In this document: positions 1-12,846 of the stretch, piece after piece
How the letters are laid out: each line of letters opens with the position of its first letter
How positions within the stretch are numbered: the stretch's first letter is position 1
DNA from: a virus
Reading direction: 5' to 3' (one strand)
Length of the DNA: 12,846 bases
UHGV virus genome: UHGV-0072830
Made by a program: the position numbers and the translations under genes
Notes under the pieces: model-generated
Databases searched by the model: none
Seen by the model: the letters and a program-made list of their open reading frames with translations, nothing else
Told to the model about the DNA's origin: nothing

Positions 1-6
1 AAACTT

Positions 7-525
7 TTACTGGCGAAGGTCATCCGCCCCCCTGATATTCCAGATAGCCATTTCCACTTCGCGACGGTTCATCAGTCCTTTCCATTTATGGCCTGCGGCA
101 AACACCCAGCGGGCCATCTGGTCACGCGCTCCGGCGTAATCACCGGCATTGAGTTTTTTCAGCAGCGTTGATTTACTGAATGCGGTAACACCGGTGTTGA
201 AAATAAACGTTGCCAGCGCCGTTTTCTGATATGGCGTCAGCGGCACCCTGACAAGACGATCGATTGCCGCATAAACCGGTTTTAAATCACTGTCGAGGAG
301 AGCCATACACTCCGCATGGCTGTAACGGCGCATTTCGATATCCGGCCCGGTATGCCCCACACAGACCGAAAGCACACCGCCAATATCGCGGTAAGGCATA
401 TAAGCGATATTTTCCAGGTGGATCAGAGACTGACGGGTCATTTCCTGATAACCACCCACACCGCCACCGGCAATCGTTACAGCCAGCAGTGTGGCTTTCA
501 GTTTTTTTGGTATCCCCGCCATCAT
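7..525 (-). CDS. lys: Endolysin with N-terminal signal-arrest-release (SAR) hydrophobic segment (KKLKATLLAVTIAGGGVGGYQ); phage lysozyme
   Basis: 172-aa ORF, ATG at 525. Gly/Ala-rich hydrophobic N-terminus typical of SAR endolysins. Position immediately after C as in Mu. Weak SD (GGAAG). Confidence 0.8.
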   Translation of the reverse strand: MMAGIPKKLKATLLAVTIAGGGVGGYQEMTRQSLIHLENIAYMPYRDIGGVLSVCVGHTGPDIEMRRYSHAECMALLDSDLKPVYAAIDRLVRVPLTPYQKTALATFIFNTGVTAFSKSTLLKKLNAGDYAGARDQMARWVFAAGHKWKGLMNRREVEMAIWNIRGADDLRQ

Positions 526-596
526 GCTTCCCTGAAAAAATGCTCTGATGGCAGTCTAAAAAATCAGGTGGCAGGTGCGGGATTATGGTGACAGGA

Positions 597-621
597 AATA
601 ACCGGCAGGATGCCGGTTATT
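597..621. terminator. Perfect hairpin (aataaccggca-gga-tgccggttatt) overlapping the C stop codon; possible middle-transcript terminator, T-rich tail on both strands
   Basis: 11-bp perfect inverted repeat with 3-nt loop read directly from sequence. Followed by TATTT on the phage strand and TTTTGGGCTTT on the plus strand. Confidence 0.45.
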
Positions 622-1039
622 TTGGGCTTTCAGGTGAGAACAGATCAGGCTGATGACGTCGTGTATGCAGCTTTCTCTGGCGGGCAATAATCTGGTAGAT
701 CTGCGGCTGGGACAGGCGGTACTGGCGACGCAGTTCTTCCATGTTACGACCATTAAACTGGCAGTAAAGCAAATCGTCGCGTAACGCGGTCAGGATCGTA
801 TCGCCGCAGGGGATGTAAAACTGCCGTCCACCCAGAAAACAGGACAGGGCAACGGCCTGTTTACGGGCAAGTTCACGGGGATTGCTGACGTTCTGGCGTT
901 TCAGTTCGTTTTCCAGAACATCAATCAGATCAACCACCGAACGGGGCCAGCGTGATTCCAGTTCCGGGGCCGGGATGTTATCAATATGTCCGATTAACTG
1001 GCGAATTGCCGGATCGTGTTCAAATAAATCATGCTGCAT
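617..1039 (-). CDS. C: Late transcription activator C (Mor/C family)
   Basis: 140-aa ORF with SD GGGGGA upstream of ATG. C-terminal half shares motifs with the Mor ORF in this window (GG.Q.YIP.G, FNGRN..EL). Position upstream of lys. Confidence 0.8.
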   Translation of the reverse strand: MQHDLFEHDPAIRQLIGHIDNIPAPELESRWPRSVVDLIDVLENELKRQNVSNPRELARKQAVALSCFLGGRQFYIPCGDTILTALRDDLLYCQFNGRNMEELRRQYRLSQPQIYQIIARQRKLHTRRHQPDLFSPESPK

Positions 1040-1151
1040 ATTTTCCCCCGGTTAACAGACAAAAAGATACACCACGGCACTGATGGTTATCAAAACCACA
1101 AGGGCAATCACTTTTATCGCATTAATCAGCGTGGACGGCCCGAAACATTCA

Positions 1152-1436
1152 TCACTGAATTTTCTGTACACAATATTTTTCCTTATAACGTTGACAGTGG
1201 TGAAGAATTTCCGGCATATCAACTGACTGCCAGCCTTTCATGTAATAACTGCCGTGGGTGCCATCGTGCCCTGTGTAATCCATTGGCTTTGGTGGTGGGC
1301 CTCCGGCCTCCCGATGTAATACCTCCTGTCGTAAACGTTCACGCCTGCCGAACTGAAAGGACGCATCCCACCCTTTACCCATGCAGAACCTCCCGACAGG
1401 CGCTGGCGAGCAGATCCAGACGGTTAAACCAGCCAT
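1152..1436 (-). CDS. Hypothetical small ORF in middle operon; real start and reality uncertain (possible internal ATG at 1283)
   Basis: 94-aa ORF from the track overlaps the 3' end of the upstream gene by 62 nt and has no convincing SD. It fills an otherwise unexplained 335-bp gap between the GH108-like gene and C. Confidence 0.25.
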   Translation of the reverse strand: MAGLTVWICSPAPVGRFCMGKGWDASFQFGRRERLRQEVLHREAGGPPPKPMDYTGHDGTHGSYYMKGWQSVDMPEILHHCQRYKEKYCVQKIQ

Positions 1437-1935
1437 TCAGATATTTCCCCTGCGAGGCACTGGATTTGATAATCCCTGCGTAATAGCGGGAACGACGCAG
1501 GAAGCACTGCAACAGCAGCCAGTCAGTATCGGCACGCAGAACGGCTGCGCGTGTGTTTTTACCGACGATGCCATCATCATCAACACCTGCTGCCGCCTGG
1601 AGGATCTGAATCGCGCGTTTAACACCGTGCTGAACGGCAGCATCAAAAACGAATAAGGAAACGCCATCAGGCCATTCGTTACACTTTGCCGCCAGCCAGT
1701 AATCACGCCAGTAGATCTGCGCCGCCTGCTCGCGGGTTAAATCCTTAATGCGGGTATCAGGTTTTCCGTCACCGTTAACATCGGTTTTGCCATCAATAAC
1801 GCCGTCGCGACGGTCAGAAATACCGTATTTCGTTTCGCCGCCACGGTCGGCAGGATCATTAACATAGCCACCTTCAACATCAGGGCGTATAACGAAATTC
1901 AGCGAATGAAGGAATGCAGGGGAAAACTCAGGCAT
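1375..1935 (-). CDS. GH108-family-like muramidase with C-terminal peptidoglycan-binding-like domain
   Basis: 186-aa ORF, ATG at 1935 preceded by a perfect AGGAGG SD. N-terminal EGGYVNDPADRGGETKYGI motif is characteristic of GH108 lysozymes. C-terminal GWFNR-type motif resembles the associated PG-binding domain. Family assignment from memory, not searched. Confidence 0.7.
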   Translation of the reverse strand: MPEFSPAFLHSLNFVIRPDVEGGYVNDPADRGGETKYGISDRRDGVIDGKTDVNGDGKPDTRIKDLTREQAAQIYWRDYWLAAKCNEWPDGVSLFVFDAAVQHGVKRAIQILQAAAGVDDDGIVGKNTRAAVLRADTDWLLLQCFLRRSRYYAGIIKSSASQGKYLNGWFNRLDLLASACREVLHG

Positions 1936-1987
1936 GTTGCCCTCCTGTCATGAACGTTTTATCGTCACAACAGAATATTGAGGGCGT

Positions 1988-2010
1988 AAAAAAAGCCGGA
2001 TTAACCGGCT
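1988..2010 (-). terminator. Rho-independent terminator directly after mor (early-operon terminator)
   Basis: On the phage strand: AGCCGG-UUAAU-CCGGCU followed by UUUUUUA, preceded by an A-tract. Starts 8 nt after the mor stop codon. Confidence 0.7.
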
Positions 2011-2017
2011 TTACTGT

Positions 2018-2407
2018 TTAAAACAAAGGGGGGGAATACTGACGATACTTTATACGCCGCATTCGTCGGATGGCTTTATAGACTGTGTTAAATGTCACAC
2101 CATGACGGATTGCCAGTTCGTGAACATTGCGACCGTTGAAATCATTCCAGATACGCAAATCCCGAATAAGCGAATCCAGAACCTGACCGCGTGGAATGTA
2201 GACCTGACCGCCGCCCAGATGCTTACAGATAGCCACAACAATCTCCAGTGAATGGGCCGGGTCAACACCTAACCGGGACAATTCCCCGCGCAGTAAATCG
2301 TTCAGCTCCGCCAGCAGTGCCGGAAAGCGTGACGTATCCTCTGCGGGATTGTCAAGATGTGCCAGGATGGTGTCATCCTGCAAATCACCAAATAAATCTT
2401 CCGTCAT
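2018..2407 (-). CDS. mor: Middle operon regulator Mor (Mor/C family transcription activator)
   Basis: 129-aa ORF. ATG overlaps the gemA stop (ATGA). C-terminal HTH region is paralogous to the C ORF. Size and position match Mu mor (recollection). Confidence 0.85.
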   Translation of the reverse strand: MTEDLFGDLQDDTILAHLDNPAEDTSRFPALLAELNDLLRGELSRLGVDPAHSLEIVVAICKHLGGGQVYIPRGQVLDSLIRDLRIWNDFNGRNVHELAIRHGVTFNTVYKAIRRMRRIKYRQYSPPLF

Positions 2408-2955
2408 TGTGCCATCCTCCGTGTCTTTCTGGCACGGGCATAAGCCGCCGTCATGGCATCATAGCCGCGCAGTTCACGCCCGGACGGACTGACTGGCAAC
2501 GGAAGCCCGTGACGGGAAAAGGCTTCACGAATACAGCGGATATGCCACTGCTTGAGAGTTTCGAGAACAATCAACAGGGTGTCGCCATGACACCACGCCA
2601 GCGTGGAAACACCCTGTCCGCCATTACGTTTCGCCGTCAGGCGCTGAACATATTTATCCAGCGCCACATCACCGCCATCGGTAATAAAACCGTCTTCTGC
2701 CATCTGCTGCCAGACTTTGTATACCTTCTCGCGGGGCGTGACATGCCCCTTAAAGCGGCGACGTGGATGTTTATTCAGCTTCTTAAAGCCGCGTTCTTTC
2801 ATGGCATCGAGCACCTGTTCCAGTTGCGTAACCGTCAGCTCGCGGCAACTGATTTTGCCCGTTTTCTGCATCAGAAAAGCGCGGTAAGTGTCGTCGTCGA
2901 GTTGTAGCTCCCGACGGGCGACATGGATTAATTTAATCAGGGATGTGCGATTCAT
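2404..2955 (-). CDS. gemA: GemA-like early regulatory protein
   Basis: 183-aa ORF immediately upstream of and translationally coupled to mor. SD GGAGGT. Position and size as Mu gemA (recollection). Confidence 0.75.
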   Translation of the reverse strand: MNRTSLIKLIHVARRELQLDDDTYRAFLMQKTGKISCRELTVTQLEQVLDAMKERGFKKLNKHPRRRFKGHVTPREKVYKVWQQMAEDGFITDGGDVALDKYVQRLTAKRNGGQGVSTLAWCHGDTLLIVLETLKQWHIRCIREAFSRHGLPLPVSPSGRELRGYDAMTAAYARARKTRRMAQ

Positions 2956-3024
2956 GATCGTACCTCCGGAAAGAGGCGGTGCTGCAACACCGCCTGAATT
3001 TACACATCAATCAGAGAGGATTTT

Positions 3025-3291
3025 ATGGAAAATAATGTACAACCTTATGATGTTGCAGGTTATGCGATTGCATCAGCACTGGTGCGCCTTCTGGTGAAGA
3101 AGGCGATCATCACCGCAGAAGAGGGCCAGGCCATTTTCAGCTCTTCAGCAGAGATTTTAAAAGATGCGCCTGCAATAAGAACAAGCCGCCGCGAAAACAT
3201 GCAACTGTCAAAGATCATGGAAGACATTATCAGTTCGTTAGACCCAGATGCTGACGGATCTCAAAAGCCTCAAACACATGAGCGTCAGTAA
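3025..3291 (+). CDS. Candidate opposite-strand small protein (88 aa) in the early-operon gap; uncertain
   Basis: ORF with SD-like AGAGAGGA 4-5 nt before the ATG. Sits in a 274-bp gap between early genes and overlaps the convergent 3230..3532 ORF by 62 nt. No promoter identified. Confidence 0.3.
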   Translation: MENNVQPYDVAGYAIASALVRLLVKKAIITAEEGQAIFSSSAEILKDAPAIRTSRRENMQLSKIMEDIISSLDPDADGSQKPQTHERQ

Positions 3292-3532
3292 CAATATCCT
3301 GGTCTGATAACCCCAGCCTGCGGCGGATGTACTCCTCGCGGGCTGTTTCATTTTGCAGTGCCACTACTGTTTCCAGACGATTCATTTCGCGGTTGATAAT
3401 GTCACGGACTTCTCTGGCGGTGAGATTATGCTTAATACCATATTCAACGATAGCGCGAACACGTTCCAGCATCCCTTTTTCAGCCATGACGTTATCAATA
3501 TTAAGGGGAGTAAATTTATCTTCATTGTTCAT
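3230..3532 (-). CDS. Hypothetical early protein (100 aa)
   Basis: ATG at 3532 overlaps the stop of the upstream ORF (ATGA coupling). Colinear with the early operon. Confidence 0.7.
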   Translation of the reverse strand: MNNEDKFTPLNIDNVMAEKGMLERVRAIVEYGIKHNLTAREVRDIINREMNRLETVVALQNETAREEYIRRRLGLSDQDIVTDAHVFEAFEIRQHLGLTN

Positions 3533-3837
3533 TTTGCGGCCCTCAGAATAAATTCAGGATAAAATTTCAGACTCATTTGCCGTAACACATCCAGTGCAGC
3601 AACGGCTGCTGATTTATCGTTGCCATCAGCAATAGCGCGGAGATTTTCAATAATCCAGTGAGGACTCAGTGACTCAGCAATAATGCCAAACCGGTACGCC
3701 ATGACCTCATCAATAGCTTTTTCATGAGACGGCTCATATACAAAATTCACAAAGTCATGCACTTCTTTTTTCGGCAAACCACCGGCAATCAGCAGGGCGG
3801 CAAGCTCTTCTGATTTTGAAAATACACCATTATTCAT
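3529..3837 (-). CDS. Hypothetical early protein (102 aa from ATG at 3837; track ORF extends to GTG at 3852)
   Basis: ATG at 3837 preceded by AAGGTGA SD and lying 1 nt after the upstream gene stop. Confidence 0.7.
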   Translation of the reverse strand: MNNGVFSKSEELAALLIAGGLPKKEVHDFVNFVYEPSHEKAIDEVMAYRFGIIAESLSPHWIIENLRAIADGNDKSAAVAALDVLRQMSLKFYPEFILRAAK

Positions 3838-3838
3838 G

Positions 3839-4021
3839 TCACTCACCTTCACAATTCATGCACGCCGTGTCATCGCCCATATCGCAGTGGTTACATTTCT
3901 GCCCGCCACAATGAGGGCACTCTTTCAGATATTCAGGGGATTCATTACCGCAGGTCGGGCATTCCTGTTTCACCGTGGTAAATTTCCCCAGCCACGAATA
4001 CGATGTTTCATTGTTTTCCAT
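3839..4021 (-). CDS. Small Cys-rich protein with four CxxC(x)G repeats (DnaJ-like zinc-finger pattern)
   Basis: 60-aa ORF with GGAGGT SD. Motifs CPTCG, CPHCGG, CNHCDMG, CMNCEG give 8 Cys in four CxxC pairs. Confidence 0.7.
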   Translation of the reverse strand: MENNETSYSWLGKFTTVKQECPTCGNESPEYLKECPHCGGQKCNHCDMGDDTACMNCEGE

Positions 4022-4538
4022 TGTTTACCTCCGCCTGTTTTTGCGCCCGGATAAATTCGTCAGAAAGGATTTCAGTCATGCGGCCCTGTGCGGGAGTCAT
4101 CCCTGTCATGACGTAAATCACATCACCAACACGGAACCACCGGAGCGGGCCGAATATTGTTGCGCTGAAATCCAGTCCCAGTGCGGGTAAGAGAGCGTCA
4201 GTACGGGCATAAGTGACCGGAATATTCTCCTGCCATATTTTCGCCAGCTCTTTTGACTGCTCCCGCAGATGTGCAGGAATGCGCGATGTTCTTGGCCTGC
4301 AACTGTTACCTGATGCGGAGCGTTGTACAGTCCACAACTCCGGCGAGAAAGGTCGCTCATTCCCCGGAAAATTCACGCCATGAAAATGACGCCCACCAAT
4401 ACCTGTGCTGAATACTGACCGGCAACCACAACCCAGAACCTTATCAAGATGGCGGGCTTCTTCGCGTAGTTTCAGGCAGTCCGCCATAAACTGGTCCCAT
4501 GCCAGCAGTGCTGCGGGATTTGACGTTTTAAAAAACAT
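4008..4538 (-). CDS. Hypothetical early protein (176 aa from ATG at 4538; track ORF starts at TTG 4577)
   Basis: ATG at 4538 overlaps the upstream stop (ATGA) and is preceded by an AGGAGG SD. Confidence 0.7.
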   Translation of the reverse strand: MFFKTSNPAALLAWDQFMADCLKLREEARHLDKVLGCGCRSVFSTGIGGRHFHGVNFPGNERPFSPELWTVQRSASGNSCRPRTSRIPAHLREQSKELAKIWQENIPVTYARTDALLPALGLDFSATIFGPLRWFRVGDVIYVMTGMTPAQGRMTEILSDEFIRAQKQAEVNNGKQ

Positions 4539-5068
4539 CACGCCACCTCCTGCACCGCTGCGGGAGCCGGAGAACAATCAAGAATGAGATAACGCAGTAC
4601 ATGGTCGGTGATATTCCAGGCGCTGGAACTGCAAATAAAACGCCCCAGCCGGATATCGATATAAGCCATCACAAAACGGGGCATTCCCTGTTCGCACATT
4701 CTGTTATCCACCTCAGCAACAATGTGAACTGACTCACAGGTCAGCACGCCCGTCGCAAACTCTTTTGCCAGCGCGGGGATGGTATTACCTTCCACCCAGG
4801 GTAATGAGCGACGCCAGTTGCACCACACCGCATCATCAACAGCAGGCTGCTCAGTTGCGTTTCGTCTTACAGGCGGCGTCGGACGCGGGCGCGGAACGTC
4901 ATAAAATCCGTTGCATTCGGTGAGCACTCCGGCATCAACCGCATCACGCAGGAAATACACCATTGACGAGGGCAGCATATTCATTTTTTCAGCCAGAACT
5001 CCGCAGGTCAGGCGTCCGTAAGCCCGTAATAATGTGCTGACACCATTCAGAATTTTTGCATCAACCAT
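4538..5068 (-). CDS. Hypothetical early protein (176 aa), Pro-rich linker between two domains
   Basis: ATG at 5068 with GAGGA SD. Internal PRPRPTPPVRR linker. Confidence 0.7.
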   Translation of the reverse strand: MVDAKILNGVSTLLRAYGRLTCGVLAEKMNMLPSSMVYFLRDAVDAGVLTECNGFYDVPRPRPTPPVRRNATEQPAVDDAVWCNWRRSLPWVEGNTIPALAKEFATGVLTCESVHIVAEVDNRMCEQGMPRFVMAYIDIRLGRFICSSSAWNITDHVLRYLILDCSPAPAAVQEVA

Positions 5069-5166
5069 GTTTTATTCCTCAGTAATCTGTTTCAGGCGCG
5101 AGCAATCCCCTGACGTATCGCGCCATAATTAAAAGAATGTGAATTAATTAAATATTAATGGTGGTA

Positions 5167-5691
5167 TTAAATACCGGCTTCCTGTTCAAATGGAATAATA
5201 GAAAAATCCTCAATGCCTGATTTAACTGTAATTCCGGCAACGCCTGCGACCGCTTTCGGTTCCAGTAAAATCGCTTCCTTGTTGATTTCCTGCTTCGTGC
5301 GAATAAAGCGTTGCAGGCCAAGACGCTCCAGCGTTTCCATCACTGCATCCATACCACGAATACTTACTGATGGCGGACGGACCCGCCACGATACATCACC
5401 GGTGACAAGATTCGCCGTCTTCACTTTGCCGCCGTTCGTCAGTTCGTCGCGGTTCGCTTCACACCATCCCTGAACGCCTTTTGAAAGGGTTTCAATATCG
5501 GTTTTAATCGGTGCAATCCGGGCTGCAAATTTCTCCGTAATTTCCGCGATGGCATCATTCATTTCCGTTTCCAGACGTGATGCTTCGCGCTGTAAATCCC
5601 CGATGCGTTTAATATCGGTAATCACCGCATCGCGGTTTTGTGGCACATAAGCCGCTGCGGCACTTTTGATACGTTTTGCTGGTTTAGCCAT
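5167..5691 (-). CDS. gam: Host-nuclease inhibitor Gam (Ku-like DNA-end-binding protein)
   Basis: 174-aa ORF with AGGAG SD. Sequence (MAKPAKRIKSAAAAYVPQNRDAV...) matches my recollection of Mu Gam. Not verified by search. Confidence 0.88.
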   Translation of the reverse strand: MAKPAKRIKSAAAAYVPQNRDAVITDIKRIGDLQREASRLETEMNDAIAEITEKFAARIAPIKTDIETLSKGVQGWCEANRDELTNGGKVKTANLVTGDVSWRVRPPSVSIRGMDAVMETLERLGLQRFIRTKQEINKEAILLEPKAVAGVAGITVKSGIEDFSIIPFEQEAGI

Positions 5692-5710
5692 AAATTAAAG
5701 CTCCTGTTAA

Positions 5711-5998
5711 TTAATATCCGCTGTATACAATGCTGGATACAGCTCGATTGCTTAATTCCATCTTTCGGGCAATGACATGAATATCCAGTCCTTCTTTATA
5801 AAGTTCACGACATAAATATTTGTCGTGTTCACTGATTCGGTATACACACAATGATATTCCGTGCCTTCTGGCATGTGCCCGGAGGGCGGTTGTGGCGACT
5901 TTCAGTTTTTCCGCCATTTCTTCAATGGTCATTTTCCCGACGTTGGCTTCGATAAATTCCCGGTCTTCGCGTGACCAGCGCTTACGATTACACTTCAT
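5711..5998 (-). CDS. Putative DNA-binding early protein with two HTH-like segments (95 aa from ATG at 5998; track start 6010)
   Basis: GGTGA SD before ATG 5998. Segments TIEEMAEKLKVATTALRAHARRHGIS and a LuxR/GerE-like pattern near the C-terminus. Confidence 0.65.
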   Translation of the reverse strand: MKCNRKRWSREDREFIEANVGKMTIEEMAEKLKVATTALRAHARRHGISLCVYRISEHDKYLCRELYKEGLDIHVIARKMELSNRAVSSIVYSGY

Positions 5999-6010
5999 GT
6001 CAGTCACCAT

Positions 6011-6430
6011 TCAGTACAGCAGAGGCTCGCGCAGTGATGCCGGAATATGCCGCAGCGATAACTGAACCGCTTTCAGGGCAAGCGAGGAATAACAGCAGCG
6101 CGCCCAGCCTTTTGCCATTAACCGGTAATCGCGCCAGATACGCTGCCACATTTCACGGGCTTCAGGGTCTGATGCGCAGATGTATTCCCGGTCCATGACG
6201 TACTCCCATAAATCCACGTTGAACGCACCGCCAAATGCAATGGCGCGGGATATGCTTTCGCCGCAATAACGTGCACAGATGCTGTAATGGTCGAAAGCAA
6301 TCAGGTAAGTCTTTTCACCACAATCATCAACTTTCCGGGCGCAAATAAACTCGCGTAATTCACCACCGTTGTTATTGCGTTCCTGAATTCGGATTAATGC
6401 CTGAATTTCATTTCGGATTTTGACGTTCAT
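6011..6430 (-). CDS. Hypothetical early protein (139 aa)
   Basis: ATG at 6430 with AAGGAA SD. Stop abuts the next gene's start. Confidence 0.7.
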   Translation of the reverse strand: MNVKIRNEIQALIRIQERNNNGGELREFICARKVDDCGEKTYLIAFDHYSICARYCGESISRAIAFGGAFNVDLWEYVMDREYICASDPEAREMWQRIWRDYRLMAKGWARCCYSSLALKAVQLSLRHIPASLREPLLY

Positions 6431-6450
6431 TGTCAGCGTTCCTTTGCGAA

Positions 6451-6720
6451 TTAATGTTTAACCGCATTCACCGGATGTGGTACTAAATCACATTCAGCTT
6501 CCATACCCACTTTCTTCATAGTGGTCAGCATCTCATCTTTGGCCTTTTTAATAATTTCAGGAGCCATAGTCAGGACGATATTTGCCAGTAAATCATGAGG
6601 CCCGATATTTTCCGTTGGCGAGATATCTGCAAGACATGCTTTTGCATCCAGAACTTCTCTGCGCCCATTGCAACCGTCACTACTTTCCAGCCATGTAAAC
6701 TCAAAGATAACTTTTGCCAT
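6451..6720 (-). CDS. Hypothetical early protein (89 aa)
   Basis: ATG at 6720 with AAGGAG SD. Confidence 0.7.
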   Translation of the reverse strand: MAKVIFEFTWLESSDGCNGRREVLDAKACLADISPTENIGPHDLLANIVLTMAPEIIKKAKDEMLTTMKKVGMEAECDLVPHPVNAVKH

Positions 6721-6731
6721 TTTGCGTCTCC

Positions 6732-6962
6732 TTATTGATTCTGAATAACTGCGCTGGCTTTTACCTTCGCGCCTTTTACCTGCTTAAAGAAAACCGCGCT
6801 GCACCACGGACAACATGCAAAGGAGTCCCATACTTCATTTTCTGGTGAGCATTGCGTCATAATTTGCTCTTTGCATTTGGGGCAATTAAATGCAGTCAGA
6901 GCCACATTGTTATTCTGTACCCGTTTAACCCATTCAATATATTTTTCAGCTTTAGTACACAT
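6732..6962 (-). CDS. Small Cys-rich zinc-ribbon-like early protein (76 aa from ATG at 6962; track start TTG 6986)
   Basis: ATG at 6962 with GGAGA SD, 2 nt after the kil stop. Motifs CPKC ... CCPWC. Confidence 0.65.
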   Translation of the reverse strand: MCTKAEKYIEWVKRVQNNNVALTAFNCPKCKEQIMTQCSPENEVWDSFACCPWCSAVFFKQVKGAKVKASAVIQNQ

Positions 6963-6964
6963 CG

Positions 6965-7192
6965 TTATCTCCAGATAATCTGGCAACCATTAAGACGGGC
7001 CGTCCATACAGAACGGGCCACCCCGGACTTATGCTCCATAATTCTGACCGCGTTTTTTACCAGTTCCACCGGTGGGTAAGTGATTTCAAGAATCGGACGC
7101 GCCACGCCGAGATATGATTCATTTACATGACTCCCGCGCGCCTGTAACCAGTTCTGCGCATCCGTTGCCATTTTTATATTTCGGGCCATCAT
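6965..7192 (-). CDS. kil: Kil-like protein (first gene after B)
   Basis: 75-aa ORF with AAGGAG SD overlapping the end of B. Assignment is by position and size only (Mu kil directly follows B). Confidence 0.6.
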
Positions 7193-7207
7193 AATTTCTT
7201 CTCCTTC

Positions 7208-8146
7208 TTAATTACGCAGCAGCGTTGAAATATCAACGTCCAGGTCTAATTCACGGAAAGCCTGACGCAGATAATCTTCGTTAACACGCTCACCTTTACC
7301 GTGAGCCGTCATGGCGGCAAGGCGAAGTGAATGATTCAGAATGCGAAGCGCACCTGGTTTCTGCGCAATCTGCTGTAATAACTCCAGTTCTTTTTCGCCG
7401 TTAATCTGCCAGGCATCCGCAATAGCTTTTACATCGGCTTTTTTTGTTTTATTAATTGCAGTGCGCTTTGCAATACGGGAAAACAGACGGGCAAATTCAA
7501 CCGTTCTGTTACCCCCCGTCATATTTGAATAAACCCGGTGATTTCCCATCAGCACAAGGCCAATACGGGTTGATTCCTGTAACAGGCGGAGTTCTTCCAG
7601 AACTTCGGCACCAAGATGATCAGCTTCGTCGATGATAACCAGCCCCTGTGTACCTTCAAGGCGACGTCGCAGGGCGCGGGAGAGCGGCCCTTTACGGCGT
7701 GGTGCGTCATTCATTCCCAGCTCAAACGCCAGTTCAGTAAGACATTCCAGAACGCTGGCACAGGATGGCGTAATGGTGATCATCCAGACATTGTTATTGG
7801 TGCGGCGATATTCACGGGCCGCTTCGGTTTTGCCCACACCAGGATTGCCACATACAACAGCAATACTTTCAGTCAGGCTGGCAAAACGCATACTTGTCCA
7901 GATTTGTTTTACCGTCTGCGTTTCCACAAAGCGGGGCGGTTCAGGTAGTTCTGCAACTGCATGATATTTTTCCAGCCAGCGTTGCAGAATTTGTGAAACA
8001 CGCTCGTTATCCCCGTTGTACTTATCATTGATAAAACTACTGATAGTTCCGGTAGAAAGTCCGCTCTCAAGAGCAATTTGTTTAAAGGTGGTTTCTTCAT
8101 TTTCTACAAGCGTGCGCAGTCCTGCGCGAATATCGGAAATATTCAT
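7208..8146 (-). CDS. B: Transposition protein B (AAA+ ATPase target DNA activator)
   Basis: 312-aa ORF with Walker A GNPGVGKTE and Walker B LVIIDEADHL. Sequence matches my recollection of MuB. Confidence 0.93.
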   Translation of the reverse strand: MNISDIRAGLRTLVENEETTFKQIALESGLSTGTISSFINDKYNGDNERVSQILQRWLEKYHAVAELPEPPRFVETQTVKQIWTSMRFASLTESIAVVCGNPGVGKTEAAREYRRTNNNVWMITITPSCASVLECLTELAFELGMNDAPRRKGPLSRALRRRLEGTQGLVIIDEADHLGAEVLEELRLLQESTRIGLVLMGNHRVYSNMTGGNRTVEFARLFSRIAKRTAINKTKKADVKAIADAWQINGEKELELLQQIAQKPGALRILNHSLRLAAMTAHGKGERVNEDYLRQAFRELDLDVDISTLLRN

Positions 8147-8184
8147 CTGAATAACCTCGTAATTAAATTTTGTTTAAACGTTAA

Positions 8185-10185
8185 TTAAATGGCTTTTTTA
8201 CGTCTGTTCTGTTCCAGAATATCCAGCGAATGATTCAGATATTCATCACGCTCAGTTTCGTATTCATCATCACGCTCCTGATTCTTCACCCGTTCCATAT
8301 TACCGGAAGGCCGGAAAATGCCGACAATTCGTGATTCTGGTGCTTCAGGTTCGGCTATCTGCGGCAGCAGCTCTGCCACTTCCAGTGCATCCATTTGTTT
8401 CTGTGCCTTAATCGCTGCTTTCGTCGCAGATTTCAGTTGTTTCTGGCGGCGGCGATATTCACGGCCTGCCGCAGCATCATTAAACGCAACAGGTGACAGA
8501 CATTCCGCTTCACAGATAAACCGACCGTCCAGGGTGTAGCAATAAACCGTGCTGTGTAACTGCTGTGGATCAAATCTGACCACAACTTTTTTCACTCCGG
8601 CATTCATTAACGCCATGTTGTAATAAACGTTTTTCGCACCTTTAAGGGAGCCGCCAACTTTAAGCGCGAACTCGCCTTTACGTGAAACGTTCACCGCCTC
8701 GGCAGGCAGTAACAGCATCCGTTTTTGCTCTTCGGTAGGCTTACGCACAATCGTTCTGGCGTATTCACGCTCAAAAACGTCATCAAACGAAAGTTTGCCT
8801 CCGCACATTTCTGTTTCACGGCCTGTTCTGGCATTGAACATCGCCACACCTTCGGCAAGGGTTTTCAGAAACAGCTCTGCATCAACAGCGCGGTCGCCAT
8901 AGTTATCAGGTTTTGCCTGCGGATTAGGCCCCGTATATGCGCCAGCCAGTGCCGGATGCTTATCAACGTATTCCTCAAGCCCACCAACACCGAAAGCACG
9001 TTCAACAGGTTTTGCCTGGCCCCAGCCTTTACCGGCAACAACGCTTGTCCAGTGCATTTTCGCCCCCATCAGTAAAAACAGTCCTTTTGGATCGTCCTCT
9101 TTTACCTTAAAGCGGTAGCGATTGGGCGCGCCTCCCGTCAGCCATTTATTCGCAGCACCACGGGTGTTATCAATGGTGATGTGAAAATCCTCCGGGATAC
9201 CGTAGCGAGTCACAACATCCATGAACGAGAGGCGAATTGAATCAATGTTCTCGCTCACATCGCAGCGCCAGCCCAGAATTTTTCGGGTTTTCACATCCTG
9301 CCAGAACCATGTTTTCGGGCGGATCACATCACCGTTAAACCAGCGTACAAAGACGTTATGCAGATAACCGTCGCCGTTGATCCACTGCATGGCGTCCAGG
9401 TGTTCCACAGTTCGTTGTTGTGCCGGTATCAGATGCATCAGTGCATGTTCACCTTCACGGCAGGCAACAACCATTGCCTCGTTCAGTTGCTGAATCCGGC
9501 GAAAGGCCGTGGCACGGGAGGGAATACTCCAGCCATGCTCGCGGGCTGCCAGTTCCAGACGCTCATAACATTTGCGGAAGGCGGGTTTTTCCGGTCGCAG
9601 ATAATCTGCAATCAGAAACTGCCAGGCATCCTCGTCAAATTCACTTTTGTGAACATTGCGACGGGATGCACCACGTCCATCAACAAGAGCAGCCGCCCAG
9701 TCAGGCTTCGCAAACTTCTGTACCTGGTAATACTTGTCACGCAAAGTGGATGCGCTGACCTGGTAATGTCCTGCAACGGTCGCAAAAGCCGTTTTTGTTG
9801 AAATCCCCTGGTTCAGCATTTCGTCTGCGGCCTGAACCGCAGGCAACCATTTTTCAGCAAGTCTGCGCTGGGAATCGCTGGCGTTATCCCATTTGCTCCA
9901 CAGCGCCTCGCGATCATAATCGTGGGCTTCCAGCGTGGGGCGGGCGATTTCAAAACGGCCCATGCTTGTTTCAATCTCTCCTTGTCTAAGCAATAACGCA
10001 GCTTGCGTTTCCTTTGGTAAAGATGAGATATGAAACTCATAGGCTACTCCTCTTACCCCGTGTATCTGTCGAAACACCCACTGTTCTAACCTTGCTTTAC
10101 GAGAGATCGCGCTAGAGGATTTTGGAAGACCTATCAGCCCTTCTAATTTCTTTGCAGAAAACCAATCATTACATTGTGGTTGCAT
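8185..10185 (-). CDS. A: DDE transposase A (Mu/D108 family); likely start ATG 10185 (track ORF starts at TTG 10191)
   Basis: About 666 aa. The body matches my recollection of MuA (from [11 protein letters not shown] onward). N-terminal ~60 aa differ from Mu and resemble the repressor N-terminus in this window. GAGGT SD 7 nt before ATG 10185. Confidence 0.95.
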
Positions 10186-10187
10186 TT

Positions 10188-10406
10188 TCAATACCTCGAA
10201 GGCCAGAGGTCTCGTGGCTCAACTCCCAATGCATCGGCAATAATTCTTTCACCCCGAGGGTAAGGTTTATCCAAGGCATTTTTTACCGTAGAGATAGAGA
10301 GACCGTTCTCACGACCAAGAGCTGCTAGGCTTTTTCCTCTTTTGCGCAGATCAGCAACAATGTCGTATCTGCTTTTGTCTTCACATTTACTTTTCTTTAT
10401 CGCCAT
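10188..10406 (-). CDS. ner: Ner-like DNA-binding regulator (negative regulator of early and repressor transcription)
   Basis: 72 aa from ATG 10406. C-terminal ...[13 protein letters not shown] resembles the Ner family. Stop is 2 nt before the A start. First gene of the early operon. Confidence 0.8.
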
Positions 10407-10415
10407 AAAATGCAA

Positions 10416-10605
10416 TCCTCACAAGCTACGCCATCAGCTACGCCGCAAGGTAGCTGACAAGGTATGCAGCAATGTTAGTGTGAATACATTGTCAATGCAA
10501 TGATGTATTCAAATATTTCGTTTGAATTTCATCTATCTTGATGATTTTAAAATGAATATATTTTTGTTTCTTTGAATACACAGTGTATTTAAAGCGAGGT
10601 TTGTG
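10416..10605. promoter_or_regulatory. Immunity/operator region between ner and c; expected to hold divergent early and repressor promoters and the operators (transposition enhancer in Mu-type phages)
   Basis: 190-bp AT-rich divergent intergenic region. Contains palindromes built on TGAATACA half-sites at 10481-10511 and 10570-10594, and a GC-rich dyad at 10434-10457. Confidence 0.75.
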
Positions 10606-11121
10606 ATGACACAAGAATGGTTTTCAGCTAAAGAGCTACAAGGGGTTGCTGGTCTTCCGTCTTCAGCAAGTAGTATTAGCCGCAAAGCAACTAATGAGGG
10701 ATGGAAAAAGAGACAGATCAAAGGAGTAAAGGGAGTTGCTTATGAATACCATATCAGCTCATTACCTGATGCCACTCAGGCAGAATTAGGAGGGGCGCAG
10801 TTATTAGATAGCGATAAGCCAGCTTATAAGTTAGCTTCTGTGTTAATGGCTTTGGTCGCAGAGTTAGAACCAGAGGAAATCCAGAGGGCATTAAAGCTAC
10901 TTAGTAAAGGCGGACTTGGAGCACTAATGCCAAGTATCTTTGATCAGACTCAAATCCAATCTCTGCACGGCGTATCGCGTGAGTGCATACAACTAGCCCA
11001 AATGCTAGAAACTTTACCAGCAGATGCGCGCAAAGAGATTTTGTCAGAGTATGGTATTCATGAACAGGAAGGTTTTGTAGCTCCTTCACAAGAACCACAA
11101 GATGTAAAAAAAGCCGTATAA
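10606..11121 (+). CDS. c: Lysogenic repressor c (D108 type)
   Basis: 171 aa from ATG 10606 with GAGGT SD. N-terminal domain is homologous to the N-terminus of transposase A in this window. C-terminal LKLLSKGGL...[13 protein letters not shown]...[12 protein letters not shown] matches my recollection of the Mu repressor C-terminus. Confidence 0.85.
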
Positions 11122-11287
11122 CAACCATGAACCAGCTAAAACATACTTCACCTCACATAATCACACATGTAACATACCTAAACGGCATGAGCTGATTTGT
11201 GATATGAGTCATTTGGTTACAGCCTGGTTGTTATCGGTTTTGAACGTTTTTTGAAGCTGTTATTGAAATGATTTGCTGTGTTTTTGT

Positions 11288-11309
11288 TTTTCGTATTTTC
11301 AATGAAACA
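11288..11309 (-). repeat. Transposase end-binding site L3
   Basis: ttttcgtattttcaatgaaaca shares the TTTCGYRYTTCA..GAA core with the two other sites. Lies about 151-172 bp from the terminus. Confidence 0.7.
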
Positions 11310-11327
11310 AAAGCAATTTTTTACTAT

Positions 11328-11349
11328 CTTTCGCGTTTCATTGATTAAC
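11328..11349 (-). repeat. Transposase end-binding site L2
   Basis: ctttcgcgtttcattgattaac. Lies about 111-132 bp from the terminus. Confidence 0.7.
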
Positions 11350-11432
11350 GACTAAAATTTGCGCTACAGGCTTGCAAGCCCCACCAAATCTAATCCCATC
11401 AGATCCCGAATAATCCAATGTCCTCCCGGTTT

Positions 11433-11455
11433 TTTTCGTACTTCAAGTGAATCAA
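11433..11455 (-). repeat. Transposase end-binding site L1 at the phage left terminus
   Basis: ttttcgtacttcaagtgaatcaa, followed by the terminal ...taca at 11459. Confidence 0.8.
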
Positions 11456-11459
11456 TACA

Positions 11460-12846
11460 ACGGGGGATTACTCAATTGGTTTGCTAAGTCAAACGAGTGG
11501 AAACCTGAATACTGACACCATAATAAGAGTCAACTCTGACGGTTCGGTTACCCCCTCTTTTTCTGACGGAGATGATACATTTATTGTTACTGCGGGTAAT
11601 CACGCAGTCGGCGTTCTTGCGTGTGCATCTCCCGGAAGCGCGCGTGCGTGTGTATCTTCTCTTGATGAAGAAAGTACTACCGATACAGGAAGTAATGAAA
11701 ATAATGCCATAGCAAAACTGGATATGGCAAAAGGGGAGATCACAACCCACGGAACAGAAAGTTATGCCGCGTACGCTAATGGCACTGTCGTCAAGGCTGG
11801 TGACACGCTTGATTATACCAATGCCAGCGTTACATTAACCGATGTTGATATCACCACGCATGGGGACAATGCTCATGCCATCGCTGCCCGCCAGGGGACA
11901 GTTTCATTTAACCAGGGAGAAATTTATACAACGGGTCCTGACGCCGCGACTGCTAAAATTTATAATGGCGGCACGGTGACGCTGAAAAATACATCTGCAG
12001 TCGCGCATCAGGGGTCTGGAATTGTGCTGGAGTCTTCCATAAATGGTCAGGAAGCAACGGTAGATATTTTATCTGGTAGCTCACTACGGTCAGCAAATGA
12101 AATCCTCTACCATAAAAATGAGACGAGTAACGTGACCATTACGGATAGTGAGGTATCATCGGCTGCAGATGTTTTTATCAATAATATTAAAGGTCATTTG
12201 ACCGTCGATGCAACTAATTCAAAAATAACGGGTTCAGCTAATATTTCAACAGATGTTAACACTCATACCTATCTGTCGCTTTCAGATAATAGTACCTGGG
12301 ATATTAAAGCTGACTCAACGGTGAGCAACCTCACGGTTGATAATAGTACGGTCTATATTTCCCGGGCAGATGGACGGGATGTCGAACCAACAAGATTAAC
12401 AATAACTGAAAATTACGTTGGTAATAATGGCGTATTGCATCTCAGAACTGAATTGGGTGATGATAATTCAGCTACGGATAAAGTCGTTATTAATGGAAAT
12501 ACCTCTGGAACAACCCGAGTTAAAGTTACCAATGCAGGAGGCAGCGGAGCTTACACGTTAAATGGGATAGAGATTATCAGCGTTGAGGGGGAATCAAATG
12601 GGGAATTTATTAAGGATTCGAGGATTTTCGCCGGTGCCTACGAATATTCATTAACCCGAGGTAATACCGAAGCGACCAATAAAAACTGGTATCTGACTAA
12701 CTTCCAGGCAACGAGCGGCGGTGAAACAAACTCCGGAGGAAGTTCAGCGCCTACTGTTGCGCCTACCCCCGTCCTGCGCCTCGAAGCTGGAAGTTACGTC
12801 GCCAACCTGGCAGCCGCTAACACTCTTTTTGTTATGCGTCTGAACG
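11460..12846 (+). pseudogene. Host autotransporter (type Va) passenger-domain gene fragment, 5'-truncated by the prophage insertion; runs off the window end
   Basis: 462 stop-free codons verified in frame from the base after the phage terminus to the window end. Nearest upstream in-frame stop (11448-11450) is inside the phage end. No signal peptide or plausible start. Ser/Thr/Asn/Gly-rich beta-helix-like sequence ends with the autotransporter junction motif PVLRLEAGSYVANLAAANTLFVMRLN. Confidence 0.75.

Follow-up and report, generated by a model that had tools for sequence, protein, structure and literature searches.

The window, that is, the whole stretch of 12,846 bp analysed here, contains the control region at the left end of an E. 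coli prophage of the Mu-like (Muvirus) kind, in reverse orientation. The prophage portion inside the window is its left 11.4 kb, and the rest is host DNA. The genes and end features are as follows.

7208-8146, minus strand: transposition ATPase B, 312 aa (ORF list, Pfam)
8185-10185/10191, minus strand: transposase A, 666 aa from the ATG at 10185; the ORF list has a TTG at 10191 (ORF list, Pfam)
10188-10406/10415, minus strand: ner, 72 aa, HTH_35 PF13693 (ORF list, Pfam)
10603/10606-11121, plus strand: repressor c, 171 aa from the ATG at 10606, ORF from 10603 (ORF list, PF02316)
11288-11459, minus strand: attL, with the Mu left terminus TGTATTGATTCAC... starting at 11459; 96-100% identical to Mu and 62-86% to D108
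11433-11449: transposase end-binding site L1, 0 mismatches to the consensus YMYNWRAARYRCGAAAR
11328-11344 and 11288-11304: end-binding sites L2 and L3, 1 mismatch each to the same consensus
11460-12846: E. coli DNA of the host, from a gene for an autotransporter adhesin that the prophage splits

The family assignment was based on Pfam, PDB sequence matches and 80 genomic loci. The repressor gene, leftward when read in phage orientation, and the rightward ner-A-B operon are divergent, and the c-ner spacer between them (10407-10605) is 199 bp long. The likely starts are the ATG codons at 10606 (c), 10406 (ner) and 10185 (A), each preceded by a GAGG Shine-Dalgarno sequence, and they agree with the annotation of phage PhiR68_1 and of RefSeq. 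In Pfam, transposase A showed the domains PF02316 (I-alpha/I-beta), PF09039 (I-gamma), PF02914 (DDE core) and PF09299 (C-terminal), B matched PF09077 and PF13401 (MuB AAA+ ATPase), and the ner product matched PF13693 with E=4e-25. The gene order and sizes are those of Mu, D108 and SfMu (c, operator/enhancer, ner-A-B), and this layout, together with the attL lying about 1 kb away, bears out the initial assignment of the locus to the Mu-family immunity and early control regions. For most of its length, the window has a backbone with 96-100% identity to Mu.

The closest relative of the region is Escherichia phage PhiR68_1 (PV340575.1), whose c-operator-ner-A segment matches at 99.9% identity across 3,216 nt and whose c, Ner and A proteins are identical to those of the window. 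It is the sole phage record with this module, its host is E. coli C, and the record labels the genes 'repressor' and 'Ner'. PhiR68_1 covers 80% of window positions 1-8184 at 96.7% identity, and so the semi-essential early region differs; the same positions are 99.7% identical to the Yersinia phages vB_YpM_5/6. We found no published analysis of PhiR68_1 immunity, and in the literature searched the name 'PhiR68' occurred only as PhiR68.2, in a defence-system screen. Likewise, our search of the literature on D108 heteroimmunity gave nothing on the present immunity type. Among 5,426 complete E. coli genomes, 15 carry the module, while 45 carry a D108-type and 25 a Mu-type region. The three carrier genomes that we examined have three different insertion sites, and the DNA-binding domains of c and A are invariant in them. 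Considering the 99.9% identity to PhiR68_1 and the presence in 15 E. coli genomes at varied insertion sites, we consider that the module is probably functional. It could be argued that the prophage is a remnant in decay that has lost a working control region, since the window shows the left end only and a host gene is disrupted. In addition, the host flank has matches in thousands of E. coli genomes, and none among the top matches listed spans the prophage junction, so that no complete genome with this junction is among them. However, the ORFs from c through lys are intact, as are the attL terminus and L1-L3, and the near-identity to PhiR68_1 and to vB_YpM_5/6 also speaks against decay. We therefore regard a remnant as highly unlikely.

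The N-terminal domains of the repressor and the transposase occupy the following segments.

9994-10173, minus strand: coding DNA of the A winged-helix domain (I-alpha), from BLASTP paralogy with c and a match to 1TNS (E=9.5e-16)
10609-10788, plus strand: coding DNA of the c winged-helix DNA-binding domain, from BLASTP paralogy with A I-alpha and PDB matches

In BLASTP, c residues 3-62 aligned with A residues 7-66 without gaps, with 39 of 60 residues identical (65%), 78% positives and E=3e-23. Both N-termini matched PF02316, the 'Mu DNA-binding domain' (c, 2.2e-22; A, 1e-44), and both matched the solved domains of MuA I-alpha (1TNS) and of the Mu repressor (1G4D/1QPM). The sequence-only reading had proposed that the two N-termini are homologous, and this paralogy survives a proper alignment. 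The c and A N-termini of D108 are paralogous too (58% in a 50-column core). In Mu, the shared domains let repressor and transposase both bind the operator/enhancer (PMC3145075; also the title of Mizuuchi et al., 1986, cited in PMC3820752).

To what does the window owe its high c/A similarity? The c/A pair of the window, at 66-70%, has the highest own-pair identity among 30 elements compared, in which the other pairs range from 41 to 62%. This value, and the inverted-repeat arrangement of the two segments, in which recombination is conceivable, would fit a recent gene conversion or duplication of the N-termini rather than selection for a shared target. On the DNA level, however, the relation has left only a weak inverted repeat (10124-10167 / 10615-10658), and this longest repeat of 44 nt is 70% complementary. 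The third-codon-position identity is 0.33, which is near random, and different codons are used at 23 of the 39 identical residues. These values indicate that synonymous sites are saturated and that the likeness is maintained in the protein sequence. Recent conversion between c and A is thus largely refuted by the third-position identity, and we consider it extremely improbable as the source of the similarity.

The matching of c with A was compared across Mu-like elements. In a sample of 28 non-redundant ones, taken from many Gammaproteobacteria, the identity of the c domain to the A domain was 53% within the same element and 38.6% between different elements (0 of 10000 permutations). In the recognition-helix columns, the identity was 58% within elements and 32% across elements. 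Equal values would be expected after a single ancient duplication followed by independent divergence, and the same-element excess therefore counts against such a history. In the window, the recognition-helix segments of c and A are alike (SSSAISRKA in A). They differ from those of D108, which are LATNITRKA in c and QATNITRKA in A, and from those of Mu, which are SVAGVHYRA and TSAGVIYVA, respectively. The closest domain pair outside E. coli was found in a prophage of a Sodalis sp. metagenome-assembled genome (NZ_JBLKSS010000061.1), with identities of 60% for c and 63% for A over 59 columns. Its recognition helices (SSPNSVSRKA / SSPSAISRKA) and its spacer sites (TGTATTTA and GGTATTCA) are similar to those of the window, but identity in the A core drops to about 60%, the A ORF of that prophage is disrupted, and it is another element in another host.

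The nucleotide alignment of the whole region located the breakpoints of a mosaic, one in c and one in A, so that both are intragenic. Between them lies one block.

~10010-11028: private block of about 1.0 kb, diverged from Mu and D108 (nucleotide alignment)

This block contains the first ~141 codons of c, the operators, ner and the first ~58 codons of A. The nucleotide identity is 96-100% to Mu at 11459-11112, and at most 68% to Mu or D108 at ~11011-10021; below 9970, it reaches at least 96% with either phage. From ~11012 to attL, the identity to Mu is 82-100%, and c is of the Mu type in its last 30-36 codons. On the other side of the block, the A/B core is common to all these phages at 99%.

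The protein comparison follows the same boundaries. B is 99.7% identical to Mu B, and over residues 81-666 the identity of A is 99.1% with Mu and 99.5% with D108, which confirms the earlier impression that A and B otherwise match Mu. A residues 1-58 are only 39% identical to Mu, and in this respect too the first reading, that the N-termini differ from Mu, was right; their identity to D108 is 52%. The Ner protein shares 65% of its residues with D108 Ner and 48% with Mu Ner. The repressor itself is composite. Over its full length, the identity is 40% with D108 c and 47% with Mu c. Its DNA-binding domain shows 56-57% identity to D108 (62% over the 50-column core) and 33-40% to Mu, with 57% and 33% for residues 1-60, whereas residues 81-171 show 49-75% to Mu and 24-50% to D108, and the stretch 136-171 reaches 75% with Mu. 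All three types share the C-terminal ...VKKAV tail, which has a role with ClpXP. The likeness to Mu also lies in the architecture, in A from residue 59 on, and in the use of 1TNS and 1G4D as structural templates. The likeness to D108 and SfMu lies in gene order and spacing, and in the DNA-binding parts no characterised relative comes closer than D108 (52-65% identity), but the C-terminal half of c and the attL of the window are Mu-like and not D108-like. Immunity of the Mu type was rejected on the values for c (47%), c residues 1-60 (33%), ner (48%) and A residues 1-58 (39%), and on the operator motif in the spacer, which is not that of Mu.

The c-ner spacer holds the following candidate sites.

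10424-10457: candidate Ner operator, proposed from the sequence, with Ner binding presumed
10472-10500, minus strand: candidate early promoter Pe, TTGCAT-17-TAACAT, found by eye and aligned with D108 TTGATT-17-TACATT
10481-10591: candidate operator/enhancer region with five TGTATTCA-type sites at no more than 1 mismatch, a sequence-based assignment
10481-10488 (minus), 10504-10511 (plus) and 10573-10580 (minus): exact TGTATTCA sites
10553-10560 (minus) and 10584-10591 (plus): one-mismatch TGTATTCA sites
10489-10517, plus strand: candidate repressor promoter Pc, TTGTCA-17-AATATT, directed toward c; the only sigma-70-like match in 10100-11460

All three exact copies of the 8-mer TGTATTCA in the 12,846-bp window fall in the c-ner spacer, within 100 bp, and two TGTATTCA-type sites make up a palindrome at 10570-10594. 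Every immunity type is marked by an enriched 8-mer of its own, and the 8-mers of the other types are lacking. At up to one mismatch, TGTATTCA has 0 copies in the spacers of D108, SfMu and Mu. The D108 motif TGATTTCA has 5 sites in the D108 spacer and 4 in that of SfMu, but the window spacer has 0 exact copies and 1 at no more than one mismatch. The motif CTTTTCAG has 4 sites in the Mu spacer (CTTTT-type repeats), and the window spacer has 0 exact copies and 1 one-mismatch copy. The candidate operator motif is put forward on the basis of repetition and alignment, and we infer that c and A bind there. A comparison of four natural variants showed the spacer to be the segment that varies most (87.5-93.5% identity). 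Of the 32 positions that vary in it, 5 lie inside the five candidate sites, which is about the background rate, so that conservation does not single these sites out.

The candidate promoters are interleaved with these sites, since the Pe spacer contains one TGTATTCA site and Pc is overlapped by two operator sites. The candidate Pe is weak (8/12), and it accordingly fell under the threshold of the promoter scan and was not reported; as the scan gave the Pc-like site only, the assignment of Pe rests on the D108 alignment. No terminators were found in a scan of 10100-11460. In the orientation of Mu, the candidate Ner operator, downstream of the candidate Pe, reads TCAGCTAC-8 bp-GTAGCTGA at 10434-10457, with a third element GCGTAGCT; D108 has an inverted repeat, GTGAGCTAC-8 bp-GTAGCTCAC, of the same architecture and position. 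In Mu, O1-O3 overlap with the enhancer, which is built of two MuA-site clusters around an IHF site (PMC3145075), and an IHF-type sequence, TATCAACGCGTTA, can be read in the Mu spacer. In contrast, the IHF consensus WATCAANNNNTTR at up to one mismatch had no match in 10407-10605 of the window, including the stretch between the site clusters. A window sequence, AATCATCAAGATA, aligns with the candidate IHF site of D108, AATCATGCTGTTA, and has 2 mismatches to the IHF consensus by hand count.

These results bear on whether the region may still be D108-type in function, with the operator specificity and immunity of D108/SfMu, and be merely a diverged allele. D108 is indeed nearer than Mu in c residues 1-60 (57% vs 33%), in ner and in A residues 1-58, the TGTATTCA sites align column-for-column with the TGATTTCA-type sites of D108 in a syntenic arrangement, and the Ner operator core GCTAC...GTAGC is common to both. 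The cores TGTATTCA and TGATTTCA differ at only two of eight positions, and partial cross-recognition with D108 is therefore possible. On the other hand, SfMu, a recognised D108-type phage, is 89% (c) and 98% (Ner) identical to D108 (PMC4406740), against 40% and 65% here. The recognition-helix segment differs from that of D108 at most positions, neither the window spacer nor that of D108 or SfMu holds an exact copy of the other's 8-mer, and the oligomerisation/C-terminal part of c as well as attL are Mu-like. We rejected membership in the D108 type and keep D108 as the nearest relative; that the module works as a D108-type region is unlikely. The sequence-only reading had called the element a D108-type or mosaic relative. 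The mosaic part of this description holds, but the D108-type part does not, in view of c, ner, A residues 1-58 and the private 8-mer; c, ner and the A N-terminus align at high identity with neither phage, and the outcome that would have refuted the first reading, high identity to Mu rather than D108, did not arise.

Going by these alignments, the immunity module is a third, uncharacterised variant that is neither Mu-type nor D108-type and is already present in databases as PhiR68_1. Its specificity is predicted to differ from those of Mu and D108, which would make it a third immunity class, and we infer heteroimmunity to both phages. In our proposal, the winged-helix domains of c and A, which share a common ancestry, would both read the repeated spacer sites with the core TGTATTCA, and the operators in the ~200 bp spacer would probably double as the transpositional enhancer. 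When the repressor occupies these sites, the early promoter would be turned off and the transposase would be denied its enhancer. When the repressor is lost, A I-alpha could use the same sites and help transpososome assembly. The predicted binding of both proteins to the operators, and their enhancer role, gain indirect support from the c/A co-variation in the 28 elements. This mechanism is the one established for Mu (PMC3145075). The DNA-reading parts (the c domain, the operators, ner and A residues 1-58) would form a 1-kb cassette that was inserted by intragenic recombination, with the Mu-type attL and c-tail as its neighbour on one side and the common transposition core on the other. Alongside the observed homology of c and A, their domain family, the mosaic boundaries, the private motif, the genome distribution and the c/A co-variation, we consider it probable that the locus is a module of Mu/D108 architecture in which c and A share the predicted spacer sites, that it belongs to a third class, and that it arose by intragenic recombination. 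We incline, with less assurance, to the stricter view that c, the operator-enhancer and A I-alpha constitute a third orthogonal set with a TGTATTCA code, heteroimmune to Mu and D108, which, taken with the co-variation in the 28 elements, would mean that protein-level selection and not gene conversion keeps c and A matched.

In summary, the module is an ordinary further member of the Mu-family immunity regions, and it neither opens nor settles a long-standing question. The sharing of a DNA-binding domain by repressor and transposase has been known in Mu and D108 since 1985-86, and the principle is therefore not new. What the window adds is a third version of the entire specificity cassette, set in a near-Mu backbone and fairly common in E. 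coli (15 genomes vs 25 Mu-type and 45 D108-type). If the module is heteroimmune, it would allow better typing of Mu-like prophages, whose regulators are now labelled only 'DNA-binding protein' by annotation pipelines. The paired changes in helix and DNA site could then be used to study how winged-helix specificity evolves, and genome engineering with Mu may gain an orthogonal pair of enhancer and transposase. If our reading is true, Mu, D108, the present type and a Shigella type (L010) would form a natural series for winged-helix decoding and for orthogonal mini-Mu elements.

The ORF table and a comparison with phage records identified window 1-11459 as the left 11.4 kb of a Mu-like (Muvirus) prophage in reverse orientation, with the following layout.

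Left end of the prophage
11459 (start), minus strand: Mu left terminus TGTATTGATTCACTTGAAGTACGAAAA
11433-11449, 11328-11344, 11288-11304: three transposase end-binding sites, consensus YMYNWRAARYRCGAAAR
10606-11121, plus strand: c (repressor), first gene inward from the left end
10407-10605: c-ner spacer, 199 bp
10188-10406, minus strand: ner
8185-10185, minus strand: A (transposase)
7208-8146, minus strand: B (transposition ATPase)

Inward of B, early and middle genes continue on the minus strand as far as lys; in the semi-essential early region, a 60-aa ORF (3839-4021, minus strand) carries four CxxC pairs (…CPTCG…CPHCG…CNHCD…CMNCE…) in a zinc-ribbon-like pattern. Beyond the prophage, at 11460-12846, lies the E. 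coli gene that it interrupts, which encodes an autotransporter adhesin (ECIAI39_1904 family); the intact gene is found at 100% identity in many E. coli genomes. The right end of the prophage lies outside the window.

The sequence-only reading had proposed that the N-termini of c and A are paralogous and that the rest of A and B matches Mu, and both proposals were borne out. BLASTP aligned the N-termini without gaps at 39/60 identities (65%, E=3e-23), both fall into Pfam PF02316 ('Mu DNA-binding domain'), and each has matches to the winged-helix structures of MuA I-alpha (1TNS/1TNT) and the Mu repressor (1G4D/1QPM). Over A residues 81-666, identity is 99.1% with Mu and 99.5% with D108; for B it is 99.7% with Mu. 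Recent gene conversion between the two N-termini was rejected as the source of their similarity: third-codon-position identity between the segments is 0.33, and different codons encode 23 of the 39 identical residues.

The same reading had assigned the region to the D108 type. Its views on architecture and on mosaicism stood, but the assignment itself did not.

Protein identity of the window to D108 and to Mu
c, whole protein: D108 40%, Mu 47%
c residues 1-60 (DNA-binding domain): D108 57%, Mu 33%
c residues 81-135: D108 24%, Mu 49%
c residues 136-171: D108 50%, Mu 75%
Ner: D108 65%, Mu 48%
A residues 1-58: D108 52%, Mu 39%
A residues 59-80: D108 59%, Mu 82%

The benchmark is SfMu, an accepted D108-type phage whose c is 89% and whose Ner is 98% identical to those of D108 (PMC4406740). 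Against these values, the 40% and 65% of the window led us to reject the D108 type. The Mu type was likewise rejected, on c (47%, and 33% in residues 1-60), Ner (48%) and A 1-58 (39%). The last five c residues, VKKAV (about 11107-11121), are the same in the window, Mu, D108 and SfMu, although the window and D108 repressors are only 24-50% identical over residues 81-171; we take this tail to be the ClpXP recognition determinant of the Mu repressor.

Nucleotide alignment anchored at attL located the mosaic borders. From 11459 to 11112, identity is 96-100% to Mu and 62-86% to D108, except for the last 50 nt at the terminus, common to all three. Identity to Mu is 82-86% at 11111-11012, and from about 11011 to 10021 it is at most 68% to Mu and D108 alike. 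Resemblance to Mu is regained at about 10010 and to D108 at about 9975; at lower coordinates nearly all 50-nt windows are at least 96% identical to both. The private cassette thus spans about 10010-11028. Both borders are intragenic, falling near codon 141 of c and codon 58 of A, and the cassette holds the predicted operator-reading parts together with the candidate operators themselves.

Within the spacer, the 8-mer TGTATTCA occurs in three exact copies, at 10481-10488 (minus), 10504-10511 (plus) and 10573-10580 (minus), and nowhere else in the 12,846-bp window. Two more sites, at 10553-10560 and 10584-10591, deviate from it by one base, and the second of them forms a palindrome (10570-10594) with the site at 10573-10580. 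When the D108 and SfMu spacers were aligned, these sites shared columns with the TGATTTCA/TGATTCCA repeats of D108.

8-mer sites per spacer, at most one mismatch
TGTATTCA: window 5, D108 0, SfMu 0, Mu 0
TGATTTCA: window 1, D108 5, SfMu 4, Mu 0
CTTTTCAG: window 1, D108 1, SfMu 3, Mu 4

Each immunity type has its own enriched 8-mer, with those of the others essentially absent.

Candidate control elements in the spacer
10500-10472, minus strand: candidate early promoter Pe, TTGCAT-17-TAACAT, aligning with D108 TTGATT-17-TACATT
10489-10517, toward c: candidate repressor promoter Pc, TTGTCA-17-AATATT, from the promoter scan
10424-10457, downstream of candidate Pe: candidate Ner operator, TCAGCTAC-8-GTAGCTGA plus a third GCGTAGCT

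The 17-bp spacer of candidate Pe holds one TGTATTCA-type site, and candidate Pc, the sole sigma-70-like match of the scan, overlaps two. The candidate Ner operator is built like the D108 inverted repeat GTGAGCTAC-8-GTAGCTCAC, presumably the Ner site of that phage. The IHF consensus was not found in the c-ner spacer at up to one mismatch. At the extreme left terminus, TGTATTGA (11452-11459) is one base off TGTATTCA, and both the terminus and the Pe-spacer site TGTATTCACAC run on as ...ATTCAC; this resemblance is probably chance, since the window holds 22 one-mismatch matches where 11.5 would be expected.

Scanning one genome per species gave 80 loci encoding MuA relatives. Thirty compared loci, including the window and the Mu, D108 and SfMu references, had a divergent repressor of the same domain, and 28 elements were left once near-duplicates were removed. 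Among these 28, c and A domains average 53% identity within an element versus 38.6% between elements (58% versus 32% in recognition-helix columns), and none of 10,000 partner permutations reached the observed mean. For 11/28 elements the own A was best or co-best for its c across the full domain; across the helix columns this held for 14/28. If the two domains had simply diverged independently after a single ancient duplication, own and foreign values should be equal; the domains are thus kept matched within each element. No other pair in the sample is as closely matched as that of the window (66% over 59 columns, 70% over a 50-column core). The closest foreign pair to it, from a Sodalis prophage, resembles it in its helix and in its TGTATTTA/GGTATTCA sites. 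Avibacterium paragallinarum NCTC11296 carries at least six Mu-like transposase loci (L072, L074, L076, L077, L083, L086), three with different c/A DNA-binding-domain pairs, possibly a natural coexistence of several heteroimmune transposable prophages. Two 1.5-1.6 kb scaffolds of Streptomyces sp. E11-3 (L013, L066) encode MuA 99% and 85% identical to the E. coli phage protein, most likely enterobacterial or Mu DNA contaminating the assembly.

In Mu, the enhancer overlaps operators O1-O3, with two clusters of MuA sites around an IHF site, and the repressor silences Pe from that region (PMC3145075). Homology between repressor and transposase is stated in PMC3820752, with Harshey 1985 and Mizuuchi 1986 as its sources. 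By homology, c and the I-alpha domain of A would both read TGTATTCA-type sites, and c bound there would block early transcription and also enhancer use.

Escherichia phage PhiR68_1 (PV340575.1) is the sole phage record carrying the module, at 99.9% identity in c-ner-A, yet it covers only 80% of window 1-8184. That part, which runs from B to lys, matches Yersinia phages vB_YpM_5/6 along its entire length at 99.7% identity; their left module is unrelated (XRE-type repressor, Ner 42% and A only 28% identical). The window is itself a mosaic of deposited phages, with 1-8184 and 8185-11459 matching different records, so c-ner-A is exchanged as a whole; the breakpoint lies close to where A and B meet. 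At 80% or more of the query covered, the module occurs in 15 of 5,426 complete E. coli genomes, against 45 for D108 and 25 for Mu, many of the latter laboratory or E. coli W lineages. In three carriers examined, the insertions truncate different host genes at different sites; c (residues 1-55) and A I-alpha are protein-identical, and the c-ner spacer is the most variable segment.

Shigella flexneri SFBU1023 (L010) and E. coli ECMA0423 (L011), both at about 2100-4626, encode an A 91% identical to that of the window with yet another c/A pair (helix ...QGVHKRA / ...MGVHKRA, own-pair identity 46%), and so represent one more winged-helix immunity class among E. coli and Shigella. Together with vB_YpM_5/6, they indicate that the type of the window is not the sole further class. 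Our literature search found no published analysis of this immunity type. We consider the control region a new, uncharacterised case of a well-known sort, already represented among deposited sequences and of modest interest.
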